Source of the DNA: Sminthopsis crassicaudata
Taxonomy: Eukaryota
NCBI RefSeq assembly: GCF_048593235.1
Contig: NC_133617.1
Location: 5,709,607-5,773,606, forward strand
Length of the DNA stretch: 64,000 nucleotides
Reading direction: 5' to 3'
Of this stretch, positions 7,643 through 59,000 are shown piece after piece. Within the stretch, counting starts at the first letter, position 1. Each line of letters starts with the position of its first letter. The notes below the pieces were generated by a model, which was given only the letters and a program-made list of their open reading frames with translations, made no database searches and had not been told where the DNA came from. The translations under genes and the position numbers were made by a program.

Positions 7643-8122
7643 TGTTAGGTTCTTATTAAGTGCTAACGAGATAATGAGATATTGGGTTCTTACTAAGTGC
7701 TAAGTCAGTACTTAACAATTCTCTGCTTCTGCCCTTTAAGGGGATTTTTACCCCTTTGAACTTCCGGGGAGGAGCTTACGTGTTTAAGAGGAGCAAGTTC
7801 ATTGGTTGAAGTATTTTTTCCCAGAAACCCCAAAGTCATTCCCATCTGATCATCCTAGAAGTTTGCTATTACTTCAGTGCATTTCACTTTGCTTGAATTT
7901 GTGGTTCCAGGTTTTTCTGAAAACATCCCACTCATCATTTTTTTGTAAAGTTCTGTTGTCTGCAGAGACTGCCAATCGCTCTCTGGGAGAAGATGTGCTG
8001 TCTCAACTCAATCTCTCCACCAGATTCTTCTTCCTGACCTAGAGTCAAGACTCCCCCTCCTTGCTCAATGTTGCTTCTTTTATCCTCCCAGAGAATGGGC
8101 GTGGAATAACTCAGGGGCTTCT
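7643..8122. mobile_element. Rearranged LTR: 5' part in + orientation (~7643-7830), 3' part inverted (~7945-8122)
   Basis: Starts tgttaggttcttattaagtgctaa, as do the LTRs at 24889 and 56564; 7945-8122 is the reverse complement of the R/U5 part of the 56564-56996 LTR. Confidence 0.7.
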
Positions 8123-22995: not shown

Positions 22996-24888
22996 AGAGC
23001 TTTTATCATGAGGAGCTTCTAGAATATGGCTAATGTCTTGAGCTTGGGCTGCATTTTTACTTCCACTTCATTTCCCTATAGATACTTTGAAAGCCTCTAG
23101 TAAAGAAACAAAAAAGAGGGCCTGAATAAAGTTTTAGTCTCATTGAATTTTGGCAGGTACGGGGGTATATAGGGACAGGGGAGAGATGGGTAGTGAGCCT
23201 TGGACAAGGGTTGCATCAGAGACTAAAAGAAGAGAGAGTCATGGAATCCAGATGGGACTAGTTGGGTCTAGTCCAGAGCCTTTCACTCCCTTATATATTT
23301 ATTCATACTGGAGGGAGGAGCAAAAACATCCTCCCATCCCTTCTTTTAATGAAGGTCTGAAAATACTCATCATCTCTTCATTTGCCACCTGATGCTATGC
23401 TAGGATTTTCTGCCACCATCATCTTGATCATGCTCAGGTTCAGGTACTCTCTGACACTGTCCTTTCCTCTTCTTCAGTGTCCTCTTGCTTATCATCTTTT
23501 CCATTAATTATAAGTCCCTAGAAGACAGAATAGTTTTTCATTTTTCTTAGTTGCCTCATTAGGGCTTATCACTTAGGATCTCAATAATTATTCATTATAT
23601 CATAGAGTATCATTTATTGATTCATCCATTCGACAAATGCTTATTATATCCACTATGTGCAAAGCATGTTAAAGCTGTTGATGCAAAAATAAAGCTGAAA
23701 AAAATCAACCCCTTCTTTCAGAGTGATTATATTATTTCCAAGAGATTGCATTGTAGATATACAGTTACAAGATGTATATAATGAGCAAATACTAAGTTAA
23801 CAAAAATTACATAGTCATTTCAAGAGAGAGAAGATGCCTGGAACTGAGGGAGAGGGTAGTAGTACCAGTCAGAGTCTGGAAAGGACTTAGCACCGGAGAA
23901 GTTTATCAAAGGAAGCGGATGATTCTAGAAACCAAAACAGATGGTAATCCAGACAGGAGGCAGGGGCACATACTTGAGGAGATACCATTTCCACAGAAAC
24001 TCAAACATTAGGTAGTCTTCCTTCCTTTTTTGCATCTAGGTTCCTGACCCGGCTGTTTAAGCTTTAGGGCCATTTTGGGACCTCTGTCCTTGGTCCTCCT
24101 CTAGTTCTTCCATTCCTTACCCAAGATGAACCCTAGGATTATAAGGACTAGTGTGGCCAGGCCAATGTGTATGAGATTCCCCACAGTATAATCCTTTAGA
24201 GCGGAATCTGAGGAAGAAAAGGTTAGAGGCAGTCATTGATTCAAGAATGGAACTTTGATTCAGGAAGTCTTTGAAATGTCCCAGATCCTTGCCTGTTCCA
24301 TCCTTCTCTCCTGTTAGCTGAGAGTTCCCCACAACTCACTTGAATTCAGCCCTAGACAGCTTGGTTTGGGACAGGATCACACTGAACAAAAATTCTGAGA
24401 TTGATTTTCTTGCTACCAACCTCCACATTCACATTAGGAAAGTTCCTCATCTTTTGTACTTTCCTTCCCTTTCTCTGATCCCGTGTACTGGGGAACCTGG
24501 CACATCATATCTCCAATTTTTATTGCTTCTCTAGAGCAAAGGTCATCCCTGAGATTGAGGGGGAGTGGAGTGCAGAAGTATACAATGAGGACATCTGGGA
24601 CAGGTGGTGAGACAGGGAAAGAAGAGATAGGTCAATACATCAAGAGATTCTGAAAGGTCAATGTAACTGGAGATGGGGCAGGCTTTGAGCTGGCAAGGAA
24701 TCAACAGGTGGTGAAAGCATGGCCTCAGAGGAGATTTTAAAAAAGTGAGTGGAATGGCTTGTGAAATGAAGGACAAAATCTGTGCGAGTGAAGTTGTTGA
24801 GGAAAAGAGGACTGAGTAGTGATGGTTGAAATTGTTGGGAATGTCAGGAGGGTGCATGCTCCTTTGGGCAAGACACTTGGGGCATGGT

Positions 24889-25010
24889 TGTTAGGTTCTT
24901 ACTAAGGGCTAATGAGATAATGAGATATTAGGTTCTTACTAAGTGCTAAGTCGGTTCTTGACAATTCTCTAGTTCCCGCCTTTACTGGAAGTTTTACTTC
25001 TATGAATTCA
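24889..25010 (+). mobile_element. 5' fragment of LTR (same family as 7643 and 56564)
   Basis: tgttaggttcttactaagggctaatgagataatgagatattaggttcttactaagtgctaag. Confidence 0.75.
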
Positions 25011-26339: not shown

Positions 26340-29300
26340 CTGGAAACACAAAGAAAGACCCGAGATGCTCAAAATCCTCTCTGCAGTTGTGTTGAGGGGG
26401 GTATAAGGAGGGGCAAGATCATAGAGTTCTCTGAAGAATTTCCTGACCAACGATTCCATTGATTCTGACCATTCATTGCTCTGAGTTTCTTTCCCTTAAC
26501 AGGGGTAGATAGTACACTTCAGATGATCTTTGGGGCTATCTAGGAAAATACAGTTGTTTCTCCTTCCATTCTTGTCCCTTGAGCTTGGTGCAGTTCCTGA
26601 GCTGGTCCATTGTTCCAACTTTGTTTTCCACTTCCTAATTGATATCCAGTCCTTATCCCGACCTCTCCTTTCTGCTGTTAAAAGGAGCCCACATTTTCTG
26701 GGCTACCTTTCAATCTTAACTTCCATCCCTCTATTTTTTCCCTGGAGAACTTGAAGACATTCTTACCTGTCACCCAGATCTCTAGGGCATCACTGGGCTC
26801 CGACACCTGGTGTGGAGCCATTCTTTCAGAGTAGACACAAGTGTAGTTGCCAGCATCCTGGGATCTCACAGAGAGGAGGGGGAAGACAGCTGAGGTCCCA
26901 GCTGGGCTCTGGCTCTGCAAGGGCTGAGGGCTGCCCACCTTCAGCAGAGCAAATGTGGCTCTCCAGAGTGCTGACCGAGGGGGCTGCCTGCACTGGAGAG
27001 TCACATGCTTCCCAGGCTCCACCACCAGGCCTGGGTGGGCTGAGAGAGAAGGCTTGGGCAGAGATCCTGAGAGGGGAAGAATGGGGGGGGTGTGAGAGGA
27101 CGCCTGGGTCAAGTCCATGTTCTGACTCTCTGTTCCTATGTGACCATCTGAGACTTCTACCTCCTAACTCAGAACTCACTATCAACTTTTACCTAAGATC
27201 CCAGATCAAAACGGAAATATCTCATGCCTTTCAAGGTCCCTGACTCAGGACTGGCCCCAGAACAGATCAGGCCATGTAGGCCCCCTGCCCTTGGCTCTGG
27301 GGGCCCCTATTTGTGCAGAGGGCAGAGGGGTCACACTCAGCATTATTCTGGGGTCCCCACACCCCTCACCTGTCACCACCAGCTCCAGGGTCTCACTGGG
27401 CACTGATTGTCTATCAGAGCCTGTCCTGTCCTGGTAAGTACATCTGTAGCTCCCAGTGTCCTCAGGTCTGACAGAAGGGAGGGAGAAGTCAGTCCAGAGC
27501 TGTGCTGAGTTCTGGTTCTGCAAGGGCTGCCTCGTCCCAATCTTCCACAGAATATATGTCACCTCCTCAGGAGAAGCCAGCTTGGGCCTTGAGCACCAGA
27601 GAGTGATGTTGGTCCCTGGGGCTACCACAAGGCCTGGCTGGGCCCACAGGGTGGGTCTGGGTAGTTGTCCTGAGGAGAAAGGGATGCCTGAGGTCAATGT
27701 CAGATGTCATTTCTAGACCCCCTCTGCTAACCCCCTGAAAGGGGCAGCAGAAATCTTGTTTCTCATCTGATTCTCTCCCTTAGGTCCTGTCTGACTGGAG
27801 AACACCCCCATTATCCTAGGGCCTAAAGTGAGATGGCCAAGACCTTTCTTCCAGCCCTATTCCCACCATCCCTTCAGAATACCCATGATCTTATGCTGTC
27901 CCCGGAGCTTTGGGGCCTCTATGTGGGGACATGGAATGGGTACTTAGGGATTCCCAGGACTAGTCACCAAGCACAGTCAGCTCCACGGCTTGGCTGAGAA
28001 AGGATGCTCTGTGTGGGGGTGTTTTCAGGTAGTAAATACAGCTGTAGCTCCCAGTGTCCTCAGCTCCCACAGATGGAAGTGAAAATTCAGTCCCGGGCCC
28101 TGCAGGGATCTGTAGCAGTAAGGGCTCCAGTCTCTTTGCATCCAGCAGGGCAAAAGTGTAGTCCTGAGAGGGGGACCATTGGGGCATTTGGCACCAGATG
28201 GTCACTGCTTTCCCTGGAGATATCAAGGGTCCAGGTGAAGCTCCAATGTTGGGTTTGGAGAAGGTTCCTGGTCAAGGAGGAAAGAAGAAAGTTAATGATC
28301 TGATCTCCCCATCCCATGCAACCATTCCATGAAAAGAGCCAAGCAGGCAAAAAGCGTGCTTGATCAGGCCCATTTTACAGTCCTGTAGGCCTGGGGTACT
28401 TGGTCCATGGGTTCCTTGGTCACCTTGAGAAAGATGTTCTGGGCTTGAGAAGTCTGTGAATCTATAAAACAATGGAGAAGATGGAACAAGGGGCGGAGCA
28501 GGTCCCCCTTTCACACCTGTCCCCCTTCTTACTCCCTTCAAGGGGCCCAACTTTGGTCCTACAGCCAGGCCAGCAGGACCAAGAAAGGACTCTAATACAA
28601 CCGCACAGACAAATTCAGACTTTTCTCTTAGGTTTTAAGGTTTGAAAATCTCTGGCTTCTCTTCCAAATAACCCCATAACTGTGGGATACACAGAATTTC
28701 TAGATTCCCAGGCTCCAATTTCCCCACACTGTGGCATGTCCTTGGCCTATCACTCATTGTCAATACTGCAGTGAAACCAGAGCAGGAGCTGCCAGAGGAG
28801 AATGGAGACTCCCTCTGAGTCTGCTTTCCCTGCCCTCATTCATCATCAGTCATTTCCTGCTCAATGAAGGGGGAGCCCTAAAGATTTAAGGAAGGGATCA
28901 TTCTTGCTACCTGAAGACAGTCATTTTCACAAGGATCACAGAGTTTTTAGCTCAAAAAACCCCATTAGACCATCCGGTCCATTAGAACATAAGCTTCATG
29001 TCATGAAGAGGGAAACTGATCTCTAGAAGGCCAGGACTTTCCCATAGTCACCCCACCAACATCGAGGGGGACAGGTGTGTGAATGTTATTTCACAGCCAT
29101 CAAATCAAGCTCCTCCTCCCTTCATCGGGCTATCTTCTGTCATAGGCCAGATGGACAGTAGCTTGGGGTGCAGAGAAGGACCCAGGGCTAGAGTGGACCC
29201 ATGAGAATGGTAAAGCCGGCATGCTGGGAAGGACCAGGACATTGCCACTTGATGGCAGCTGGGGCAGCATCCTGGGGCCGCCAGCATCTGAGCTGGGCTT

Positions 29301-56000: not shown

Positions 56001-59000
56001 AGAACAGATCAGGCCGTGTAGGCCCCCTGCCCTGGGCTCTGGGGGCCCCTATTTGTGCAGAGGGCAGAGGGGTCACACTCAGCATTATTCTGGGGTCCCC
56101 AAACCCCTCACCTGTCACCACCAGCTCCAGGGTCTCACTGGGCACTGATTCTTCACCAGAGACTCTCCTGTCCCTGTAAGTACATCTGTAGCTCCCAGTG
56201 TCCTCAGGTCTGACAGAAGGAAGGGAGAAGTCAGTCCAGAGCTGTGCTGAGTTCCGCTTCTGCAAAGGTTGCCTGGTCCCAGTCTTCCACAGAGTGTATT
56301 TCACCTCCTCAGGAGAAGCCAGCCTGGGCCTTGAGCACCAGAGAGTGATGTTGGTCCTTGGGGCCACCACAAGGCCTGGCTGGGCCCACAGGGTGGGTCT
56401 GGGTAGTTGTCCTGAGGAGAAAGTGGTGCCCGAGGTCAATGTCAGATGTCATTTCAAGATCCCCTCTGCTAACCCCCTGAAAGGGGGAGCAGAAATCTTG
56501 TTTCTGGTCTCACTCTCTCCCTTAGGTCCTGTCTGACTGGAGAACACCCCCATTATCCTGGGGTGTTAGGGTCTTACTAAGTGCTAATGAGATATTAGGT
56601 TCTTAGTAAGTGCTAAATCGTTACTTAACAATTCTCTAGTTCTGGTCTTTACTAGGAGTTCAACCCCTTTGAATTCCTCAGGAGGAGCTTACAGGCTTAG
56701 GAGGAGCAAGTTCATTGGTTGAAGTAATTTTTCCCAGAAGCCCTTGAGTTATCCCATGCCCATTCTCTGGGAGGATAAAAGAGAGCGGCACTCCAGAGAT
56801 AGTCTCTGCTCTAGACCAGACTTGAGGCAGCTCTCTGCAGGAAGGGAAGTCACTTCTCTGGACGACAGTTAACGGCAACTGTCTGGAGACAACGGCTCTC
56901 TACAGGAAGAAGAATCTGTCCAAAAGATTTGAGTTGACACAGCAGATCTCCTCCCAGAGAGCGATCTGCAGCTTCTGGAGACAACAGAACTTTACATATT
57001 GGCGCCCAATGTGGGGCGCCAATAATGTAACATGCTGCTGTCTCCAGAAACTGCCTATTGTTCTCTGGTCCAGAGTAGTGACTTCCCTTCCTGAAGAGAG
57101 CAGCCTCAAGTCTGGCCTAGAGTAGAGACTATCTCAGGAGTGCCGCCCTCTTTTATCCTCCCAGAGAATGGGTGTGGGATAACGCAAGGGCTTCTGGGAA
57201 AAATTACTTCAACCAATGAACTTGCTCCTCCTAAGCATACAAGCTCCTCCCCAGGAATTCAAAGGGGTTGAATTCCTAGTAAAGACCAGAAATAGAGAAT
57301 TGTTAAGTACCGATTTAGCACTTACTAAGAAACTAATATCTCATTATCTCATTAGAACTTAGTAAGAACCTAACACTGGGGCCTAAAGCAAGATGGCCCA
57401 GAGCTTTCTTCCAGCCCTATTCCCACCATCCTTTCAGAATTCCCTGGATCCTATGCTGTCCCCAGAGCTTTGGGGCCTCTATGTGGGGACATAGAATGGG
57501 TACTTAGGGATTCCCATGACTAGTCACCAAGCACAGTCAGCTCCACGGCTTGGCTAAGAAAGGATGCTCTTTGTGGGGGTGTCTTCTTGTAGTAAATACA
57601 GCTATAGCTGCCAGTGTCCTCCGTCCCCACAAATGGAAGTGAAAAGTCAGCTCTGGGCCCTGCAGGGATCTGTAGCAGTAAGGGCTCCAGGCTCTTTGCA
57701 TTCAGCAGGGCAAAATTGTAGTCCTGAGTGGGGGACTGTGCAAACATTTGGCACCAGATGGTCACTGTTTTTCCTGGCAATATCAAAGATCCAGGGGAGG
57801 CTCCAATGTTGGGTTTGGGAAGCATTCCTGAGAAAGGAGGAAGGAAGAAAGTTAGAGACCTGATCTCTGCCATCCCATTCAATCATTCCATGAAAACATC
57901 CAAGCAGAGAAAAAGGGTGGACTAAGCATGCCTGATCAGGCCCATTTGCACAGTCCTGTAGGCCTGGGGTAGTCGGTACGAGGGCTGCTTGGTCACCTTG
58001 AGAAAGATGTTCTAGGCCCAAAAAAGGCTGTGAATCTACAGAACAATGGAGGACAAGGAATAAGGCCCATTCAGACCTTTCTCTTACATTTTAAGGTTTG
58101 AAAATCTCTGTCTTCTCTTCCAAATAATTCCATAACTGAGGGATAGATAGATCTTGAGATTCCCCGGCCTCAATTTCCCCACACTATAGCAGGTCCTTGT
58201 CCATTGTGCTTACTGCAGTGAAACCAGAGCAGGAGCTGCTAGAGGAGAATGGGGGCTCCTTCTGAGCTCTGCTTTTCCTGCACTCCATCATCTATCAGTA
58301 ACTTCCTGTTCAGTGAAGGAGCCCCAAAGATTTAGGGAAGGGGTCCTTGCTACCTGAAGACAGTAGCAGTCCCAGGGATCACAGGGTTTGAGCTCTAGCA
58401 TCCCCATTAGACCATCCAGACCATTAGAACATGAGCTTCATGTCATGAAGGGAGGAACTGAGTTCCAGAAGGCCAGGACTTTCACATAGTCACCCCACCA
58501 GCATCTAGGGGGACAGGTGTGTGAAGTTATATCACAGTCACCAAATCTGAGGCTCCTCCTCCCTTTACCAGGCTATCTTCTATCACAAGCCAAATGGACA
58601 GTAGCTTGGGGTGCTGAGAAGAGCCCAGTGCTAGAGTGGACCCAAGGGAGAAGTAAAGACGGCATGCTGGGAAGGACCAGGACAGAAGGGCTTTACAGGC
58701 AGGGGAAACAAGATGAGCAAAGACAGAGAGATGGGACATGATGGGTGTTGGGGGAAGCATCTGCCCAGGATGAAGGGAATATAAGGAGGACAGAAGGGAA
58801 CACTGGGAGACAGAACGGGGCTGGTGGGATATTGGCAGTGTGAACCCAAAGAAGAAAGGAAAAGTTCATCTAGGTAAAGTTTCCACTGTAAAAGCTGGGT
58901 GCCGCTGCTCCCAAAGGCGGCTGTGTATGCCTCAGGGAGGAGCATCCTGGCTTGAATGGCTGAGTCACCAAGGGACCCTGAGCAGATGAGGGGAGATCCC

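Follow-up and report, generated by a model that had tools for sequence, protein, structure and literature searches.

In the second (plus-strand) transfer of reverse transcription, including its intermolecular form, plus-strand strong-stop DNA that ends in a primer-binding site (PBS) anneals and is extended, and two co-packaged genomes can both contribute, as set out in the sections of the two sources available to us (PMC6088434; PMC9278108). The unit described here, two long terminal repeats (LTRs) placed tail to tail through their PBSs with one 6-bp target-site duplication (TSD) around both, would have arisen by a process resembling the intermolecular form of this transfer but with a mistaken partner: a second plus-strand PBS would take the place of the minus-strand PBS, so that the LTRs come out inverted, both ends are U3 ends, and internal genes are missing. 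The resolution of PBS heteroduplexes and the reversion to the tRNA sequence, in the part of PMC4549124 consulted, likewise involve a plus strand copied from the tRNA and a mismatched duplex resolved at about 50:50; the heteroduplex proposed here differs in consisting of two tRNA copies in antiparallel register. Strong-stop DNA self-priming in vitro is also a mispriming through a self-complementary 3' end, but it is intramolecular, concerns the minus strand, and is a dead end, whereas the priming considered here would be plus-strand and mostly intermolecular, with products fixed in the germline with TSDs. The inversion circles formed by autointegration are likewise aberrant LTR-element DNA with an inverted part; their breakpoints, in the accessible portion of PMC7197481, are scattered and made by integrase, in contrast to the fixed 22-nt PBS-PBS overlap seen here. 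The PBS palindromes of MMTV and HIV-2 are self-complementary at the PBS, as in our case, but they are a different palindrome acting at the RNA level (packaging/dimerisation), and the portion of PMC8096270 consulted describes no DNA product or insertion. Related in origin are the class II endogenous retroviruses (ERVs) of dasyurid marsupials (PMC11334065, seen in part), with which the unit shares LTR termini, a Lys-type PBS, a 6-bp TSD, and, in its relatives, beta-like gag-pro-pol; the available main text of that article makes no mention of inverted, palindromic, PBS, or TSD. No description of LTR-PBS-inverted-LTR insertions was found in the literature searched, which mostly left subscription journals and older virology outside, and the excerpts of PMC3159456, PMC6894440, and PMC13756887 at hand contain nothing on such products.

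Judged by its sequence, the unit is neither a provirus nor a solo LTR, nor is it a TRIM, a DIRS element, or a MITE. Unlike a canonical provirus it has inverted LTRs and no internal region, and unlike a solo LTR it has kept the PBS and an inverted partner. Short, non-coding elements with terminal repeats are known as MITEs, TRIMs, and DIRS elements, the repeats being inverted in MITEs and DIRS; the inverted LTRs of DIRS elements surround a reverse transcriptase (RT) and a tyrosine recombinase, and these elements are not known to make a TSD. The terminal inverted repeats and the TSD of the unit resemble those of a MITE superficially, though clonal spread by a transposase is improbable; the direct LTRs of a TRIM, with PBS and PPT between them, are absent, and the lack of a coding region and the presence of a 6-bp TSD set the unit apart from the DIRS type.

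Structure and setting of the insertion

Within the window, by which we mean the whole stretch of 64,000 nt that was analysed, the unit with its TSD spans 56558..57381. The left copy of the TSD, CTGGGG (56558..56563, plus strand), which is single-copy at the paralogous empty site, is followed by a plus-strand LTR of a long subtype (56564..56996, 433 nt) and by the 3-nt spacer TAT between this LTR and its PBS (56997..56999, plus strand), identical in relatives. The 22-nt PBS-PBS joint comes next (57000..57021, plus strand): a full 18-nt tRNA-Lys-type PBS (57000-57017) extended by GCCA, a sequence found at 191 genomic sites. A 4-nt spacer on the minus strand (57022..57025) leads into a minus-strand LTR of a short subtype of the same family (57026..57375, 350 nt), and the right CTGGGG (57376..57381, plus strand) closes the unit. 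Both LTRs have TG...CA termini with the U3 end outward, TGTTAGG at the outer edge, and TTACA at the centre, and they agree at 312/342 aligned columns (91%). We assume the primer to be tRNA-Lys(CUU).

The coordinates, lengths, and TG...CA ends of the two LTRs given in the initial annotation were borne out, as were the hairpin it had placed between them at 56997-57024 and its reading of both outer ends as U3 termini inside a single 6-bp TSD. Its figure of ~70 bp for the excess length of the left arm has to be corrected to 83 nt, the balance between an additional 91 nt in the 3' part of the left arm and 8 nt that only the right arm possesses, near its 5' end. The statement that the centre contains exactly one full PBS stands in that a full PBS is present, but needs refinement, as the joint is symmetric and the full PBS is that of whichever strand was kept; read on the minus strand, the 22 nt are the right arm's PBS with two mismatches and one CpG-decay change.

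A tRNA-Lys-type PBS 2-4 nt behind the LTR is present as in class II (beta-like) ERVs, and the TG...CA termini of each arm and the 6-bp TSD also agree with that class. As regards a canonical TATA box and an AATAAA signal, the window arms contain a GATAAAA motif only, without AATAAA, which the LTRs of the two families A and B introduced below possess. Among 20 loci tested, five proviral relatives of the window family have capsid-region matches of 51-61% to the Gag of family B, and from this beta-like gag we conclude, on sequence grounds, that the arms are ordinary class II (beta-like) ERV LTRs. The window family's own proviruses show both PBS types.

Two further pieces of this LTR family lie in the window (7643-8036 and 24886-25009), and elsewhere in the genome the family offers additional arrangements around the PBS. 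At L009 and L023, a first PBS of a variant Lys(CUU) type is followed, ~92 nt further on and behind a U5-like stretch, by a tandem primer site of the Lys3 type, and another inverted LTR pair (L005:1380-1430) has more than 30 nt of tRNA-Lys3-like sequence at its centre, the Lys(CUU) and Lys3 labels at these three loci being our assumption. At L004:1501-2187, an LTR, a PBS, a short leader, and an inverted 96-nt U3 end stand within one TSD; its joint is different, and to judge from its sequence it is another two-U3-end insertion.

A genome search with each arm brought up scattered copies in either length: 29 are long (431-447 nt), 27 are short (346-354 nt), and most have their own TSD or proviral context. 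In a tree, long and short copies split at a support of 0.998, with one window arm on each side. Since copies of both lengths are dispersed and the arms fall on opposite sides of the split, the 91-nt difference is a subtype trait and not damage, which favours the earlier proposal that two different templates were involved. The comparison of arm-to-arm with arm-to-subfamily divergence that had been suggested as a check gave a divided answer: the subtypes split, but over the first 300 nt the arms are 93.1% identical to each other and 93.4% and 92.7% identical to their respective best relatives, an equality that, taken as it stands, counts against the two-template reading.

The unit lies in a 1116-nt intron (56412-57527) of a minus-strand gene, ~146 nt from each splice site. 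The exon preceding the insertion (57528..57827, minus strand) encodes the second Ig domain of a LILR/OSCAR-like gene, as indicated by domain and structure matches, and the exon following it (56112..56411, minus strand) encodes the third, for which LILRB3 and PirB are the best matches among solved structures; the Ig exons of this host gene are closest to LILR, PirB, and OSCAR. The surrounding region, 11400-61400, contains in tandem at least four related genes that have LILR/OSCAR-like Ig exons and lie on the minus strand. As had been claimed from the window alone, the paralogous site is empty: in the paralogous gene at ~26-32 kb of the window, the same intron is continuous and contains a single 6-mer, CTAGGG (27816..27821, plus strand), with one mismatch to CTGGGG.

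The TSD and the empty site bear directly on two other explanations. The first is that the two LTRs entered in independent insertions, or that a rearrangement after integration took place at the quasi-palindromic PBS. LTRs of these families are abundant, and nested or adjacent insertions do occur; yet each arm having its own TSD, the outcome expected from two events, was not seen, there being no inner TSD, one outer 6-bp TSD, and an empty paralog with one 6-mer, and the identical 22-nt joint at 191 sites as well as the lack of the genomic PBS variant in the joints (see below) argue against both versions. We regard this explanation as very improbable and agree with the earlier description of the unit as a single insertion. 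The second is that the palindrome is a fold-back artefact of the assembly. Its centre is spanned by none of the short-read contigs listed, but in that case identical arms without a TSD would be expected, whereas the arms are 91% alike and of different subtypes, a TSD and an empty paralog exist, and exact contigs from two runs cover both edges (left, 63 nt with 29 inside the LTR, run X3; right, 134 nt with 28 inside the LTR, run X2), although both fall just short of the 31 letters set as the bridging rule. The likelihood of an artefact thus appears negligible. The empty-site contigs of run X1 (17 differing letters) and run X16 (24 differing letters) are indistinguishable from the paralog.

Because the arms are inverted copies, the predicted structure of the unit's minus-strand transcript is a single long hairpin (-618 kcal/mol; mean of 20 shuffles, -243). 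An effect of the copy in the immune-receptor intron on its host, such as the editing, altered splicing, or convergent promoter activity suggested in the initial annotation, is possible. No RNA run was among the sequencing runs listed as containing the sequence.

Recurrence of the joint in the genome

The initial annotation had called for a genome-wide search for the joint flanked by inverted LTRs with TSDs, and this search demonstrated that the unit is not unique. In the genome (3.24 Gb in 8 contigs), a symmetric joint pattern matched 191 sites and a reversed control none. The pattern was found in one orientation at 105 sites and in its complementary form at 81, so that 186/191 joints keep one intact PBS; the remaining 5/191 are of a mixed form, all of one kind. 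We examined 182 of the 191 loci (100/105, 81/81, and 1/5 of the mixed form). About 100 of these 182 join LTRs of two families, A (576 nt) and B (301 nt), which have no similarity to each other, and the rest are varied pairs, many of them from the window's family. An earlier count of one-sided A-B joints (~48 A-intact, no B-intact) was an artefact of a pattern that ended in A, and it disappeared with the symmetric and complementary patterns.

Both termini were recognised at 76 loci; the 6-bp TSD is perfect at 42 of them, has a single mismatch at 4, and is absent at 28, compared with 0.06% perfect and 0.44% one-mismatch in 5000 mismatched pairs; these TSD counts are lower bounds, as 106/182 loci are without one or both recognised termini. 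An imprecise first boundary finder was supplemented by a motif-based one, and by either method 50/182 loci are two-arm dimers with a 6-bp TSD. A census that relied on A and B LTR ends within 31 nt of each other and left the PBS out of the pattern yielded 116 A-B sites; in the 100 of these that were listed, the PBS-PBS joint is kept in 98, and the other 2 have central deletions. The locus pairs L187/L188 and L095/L096 are duplicated, and L188 was left out of the distance and tree analyses below.

Two other products share the joint. In 11/182 loci (null 8/5000), a single LTR is followed by the joint and by a TSD directly after the joint's last CA (L055, L066, L084, L158, L162, L173, L178, L196, L207, L215, and L226), and on this sequence evidence a PBS-derived CA was apparently used as an integration end in this single-LTR class. 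Of 16 loci followed over 10 kb, eight are TSD-bounded composites with differing breakpoints (L332, L335, L336, L337, L339, L341, L342, and L346), in which an LTR and the joint precede an inverted partner LTR with a 3' internal piece, a switch, and a direct 3' LTR. These eight composites account for only part of the 28 loci that lack a TSD. L191, and also L103, L161, and L209, consist of a B LTR, the joint, and only ~27 nt of A; the A remnant stops where a hairpin in the U5 of A resembles the terminus of an LTR, and a TSD was found for L191.

The number of A-B dimers raises the question of whether one or a few founding dimers spread as a unit, as a clonal, MITE-like family, the interpretation implied by the description of the window unit as a MITE-like element. 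About 100/182 loci do have the same A-B pair, and among 33 TSD-bearing A-B dimers the A-arm and B-arm distances co-vary (r=0.90; 0.53 for the 16 young ones). In a tree of 19 young and 2 older dimers with 25 ordinary A LTRs, the dimer arms cluster (7 changes versus 14.5 when shuffled) and form two dimer-only clusters of 7 and 4, the ordinary LTRs being a biased sample picked as nearest to one arm. On the other hand, clonal descent predicts a single inherited joint type and a clade of dimer arms, and the observations speak against both: A-intact and B-intact joints stand at 52:48, sister arms on the A tree carry opposite joint types, and the placement of all young dimer A arms in one clade apart from ordinary A LTRs is rejected (AU p=0.005). 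There are also many other LTR pairings, the window's own included, and a transcript from either arm would, by its anatomy, include neither a PPT nor, further downstream, a second copy of that arm's LTR. We therefore consider clonal spread improbable and find the notion of a MITE-like family unsupported. From the sequences, the dimers are likely repeated independent accidents of reverse transcription, dead ends and not a self-spreading family, and we read the clustering and co-variation as A and B source lineages that were active together, a pattern that partial clonality also fits.

Pairing of primer-binding sites as the probable source of the joint

We propose that two plus-strand strong-stop DNAs of different subtypes were joined PBS to PBS and integrated by their two U3 ends, a reading to which we assign a probability of roughly 0.85 from the sequence evidence. 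Plus-strand strong-stop DNA ends in an 18-nt copy of the tRNA, which serves as a template for the plus strand alone, according to the parts of two studies that were consulted (PMC4549124; PMC6088434). The last 14 nt of the PBS are self-complementary at 12/14 positions; for the antiparallel duplex of two copies, which has flush 3' ends and contains two G-A mismatches, we computed -15.0 kcal/mol. Extension of each end by GCCA gives exactly the 22-nt joint, whose strands differ at two positions only. The sequence of events would thus begin with two such DNAs in one particle, each ending in the 18-nt tRNA copy, which would anneal PBS to PBS through the 14-bp mismatched duplex with its flush 3' ends; RT would add GCCA and displace the partner's minus strand out to the U3 end, integrase would use both U3 ends, and replication would fix one strand of the mismatched centre. 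We infer the annealing, the displacement synthesis, and the use of two U3 ends inside the particle from the structure of the products. If extension halted after GCCA, the CA could serve as the end and a single LTR with the joint and a TSD would result; if the partner's minus strand were kept and a template switch followed later, the product would be a composite with an inverted LTR and an internal piece.

Three predictions of this scheme can be compared with the census. PBS heteroduplexes segregate 50:50 in the part of PMC4549124 at hand, and the 52:48 split between A-intact and B-intact joints over 182 loci (p=0.76) matches this segregation, which supports the prediction that the two arms should supply the intact PBS equally often. 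Among family B proviruses, 358 by pattern, 88 of 100 listed possess a PBS variant whose position 6 is T (counted by eye), whereas this variant occurs in 0/44 B-intact joints (by eye) and in 0/31 with the same spacer (Fisher p=1e-20). The joint is therefore a copy of the tRNA and not of the genomic PBS, though tRNA-type joints are partly expected by selection, because only a palindromic PBS could form the joint. Third, a common intermediate should yield further kinds of product, and the single LTRs ending at the joint (11/182) and the TSD-bounded composites (8/16) agree with this. In 88 of the 100 listed B proviruses the PBS departs from the joint-type tRNA copy at 1-2 positions, far from the 50:50 that simple segregation predicts.

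PBS homodimers are known in vitro for HIV-1. The energy of pairing does not by itself favour such a duplex: plus/minus PBS duplexes, even with variant PBSs, were computed at -19.1 to -24.7 kcal/mol, stronger than the self-duplex, and 802/5000 shuffled PBSs self-pair as well. Geometry and timing, and not energy alone, must consequently favour the self-duplex. The mixed form of five joints fits what a heteroduplex could give; in 5/5 of them C has replaced the A of each G-A mismatch, and in none the opposite change was seen (p=0.06). A C-for-A change of this kind would, we presume, fit an adenine glycosylase such as MUTYH.

The initial annotation had envisaged strong-stop DNA priming on its own or on a second PBS through the pairing of GCCC with a GGGC end. 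The second PBS, the two templates, and the two U3 ends are supported, and these ends do pair, but the pairing extends beyond four nucleotides to 12/14 with flush 3' ends, and priming on the own PBS is excluded at this locus by arms of two subtypes. More generally, one strong-stop DNA could fold back and prime on its own PBS hairpin, with one arm diverging or being deleted later. The PBS does fold into a hairpin of 4 bp in which the 3' end is paired (-3.6 kcal/mol), the arms are nearly identical at a few loci (L365, 99%; L109, 97% over 378 nt), and joints of the single-LTR class keep the LTR's own PBS in 12 cases and the other form in 2, more one-sided than 50:50. However, fold-back cannot join the unrelated LTRs A and B and is excluded for heterodimers, the window arms match two dispersed subtypes, and the exact deletion of the short subtype is present in many older solo LTRs. 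Fold-back may have produced a minority of the loci, the window locus not among them, and as a general explanation of the joint we rate it slightly below clonal spread.

The scarcity of homodimers needs to be discussed with respect to the joining of two strong-stop DNAs. Random co-packaging predicts homodimers at least as common as heterodimers, and the 2 A-A sites (detected with a pattern for the young subtype only) and 1 B-B site versus 116 A-B sites count against the mechanism. All three homodimers have lost sequence, either centrally or from one arm. Perfect palindromes are lost or revised in genomes, and by analogy this loss or revision is the likely reason for the scarcity; the nearly identical arms of L109 are still present.

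The coding capacity of the two families is unequal. Family B elements, ~6.7 kb, encode Gag_p10, Gag_p24, RVP, RVT_1, RVT_thumb, RNase_H, and rve domains, with no env frame seen in the copy examined, and family A elements are ~3.7 kb, the one long frame tested being without a Pfam match. As A is short and without a known domain in the tested frame while B encodes gag-pro-pol, these sequences suggest that A likely rode in the particles of B, as a parasite-helper pair whose subtypes changed in step.

Occurrence elsewhere and significance

A Lys3-type analogue of the joint was found at 6 sites of the genome, none with inverted arms or TSDs. In metagenome contigs, the exact joint occurs in 26 (L352-L377), representing 17 distinct loci. 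At 13 of these loci CA precedes both PBS starts within 6 nt (null 8%), and at 11 related ends flank the joint on either side (null 0.3%). These metagenome loci have no similarity to the LTRs of this genome, and the single joint match in viral contigs is without arm similarity. Whether the pathway extends to any tRNA-Lys(CUU)-primed retroelement is a question on which we consider the odds to be even. In such elements, strong-stop DNAs would pair with each other instead of undergoing the second transfer, integrase would accept U3/U3 and PBS-derived CA ends, and overlooked insertions (dimers, joint-ended single LTRs, and inverted composites) would exist across animals. If so, these insertions would record which RNAs shared a particle, their formation would be boosted when the genomic PBS drifts from the tRNA, perfect homodimers would be thinned by palindrome instability, and animal genomes would be seeded with long-hairpin and convergent-promoter cassettes that are now annotated as two solo LTRs.

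For repeat annotation, the joint provides a fixed 22-nt tag, which can be scanned for with the pattern TGGYRCCCMAYRTKGGGYRCCA, for a class currently split into two solo LTRs, and this tag is quickly applied to any genome with tRNA-Lys(CUU)-primed elements; by their predicted fold such insertions are ready-made long hairpins. With 116 A-B joints next to 358 family B proviral 5' ends, the dimers constitute a fossil record, in large numbers, of a reverse-transcription path for which the reviews searched contain no description. Integrase likely used two U3 ends, and ends whose CA was made from the PBS, in the germline. Finally, each dimer names two RNAs that were likely present in one particle, so that co-packaging and the pairing of helper and parasite may be read from the genome.
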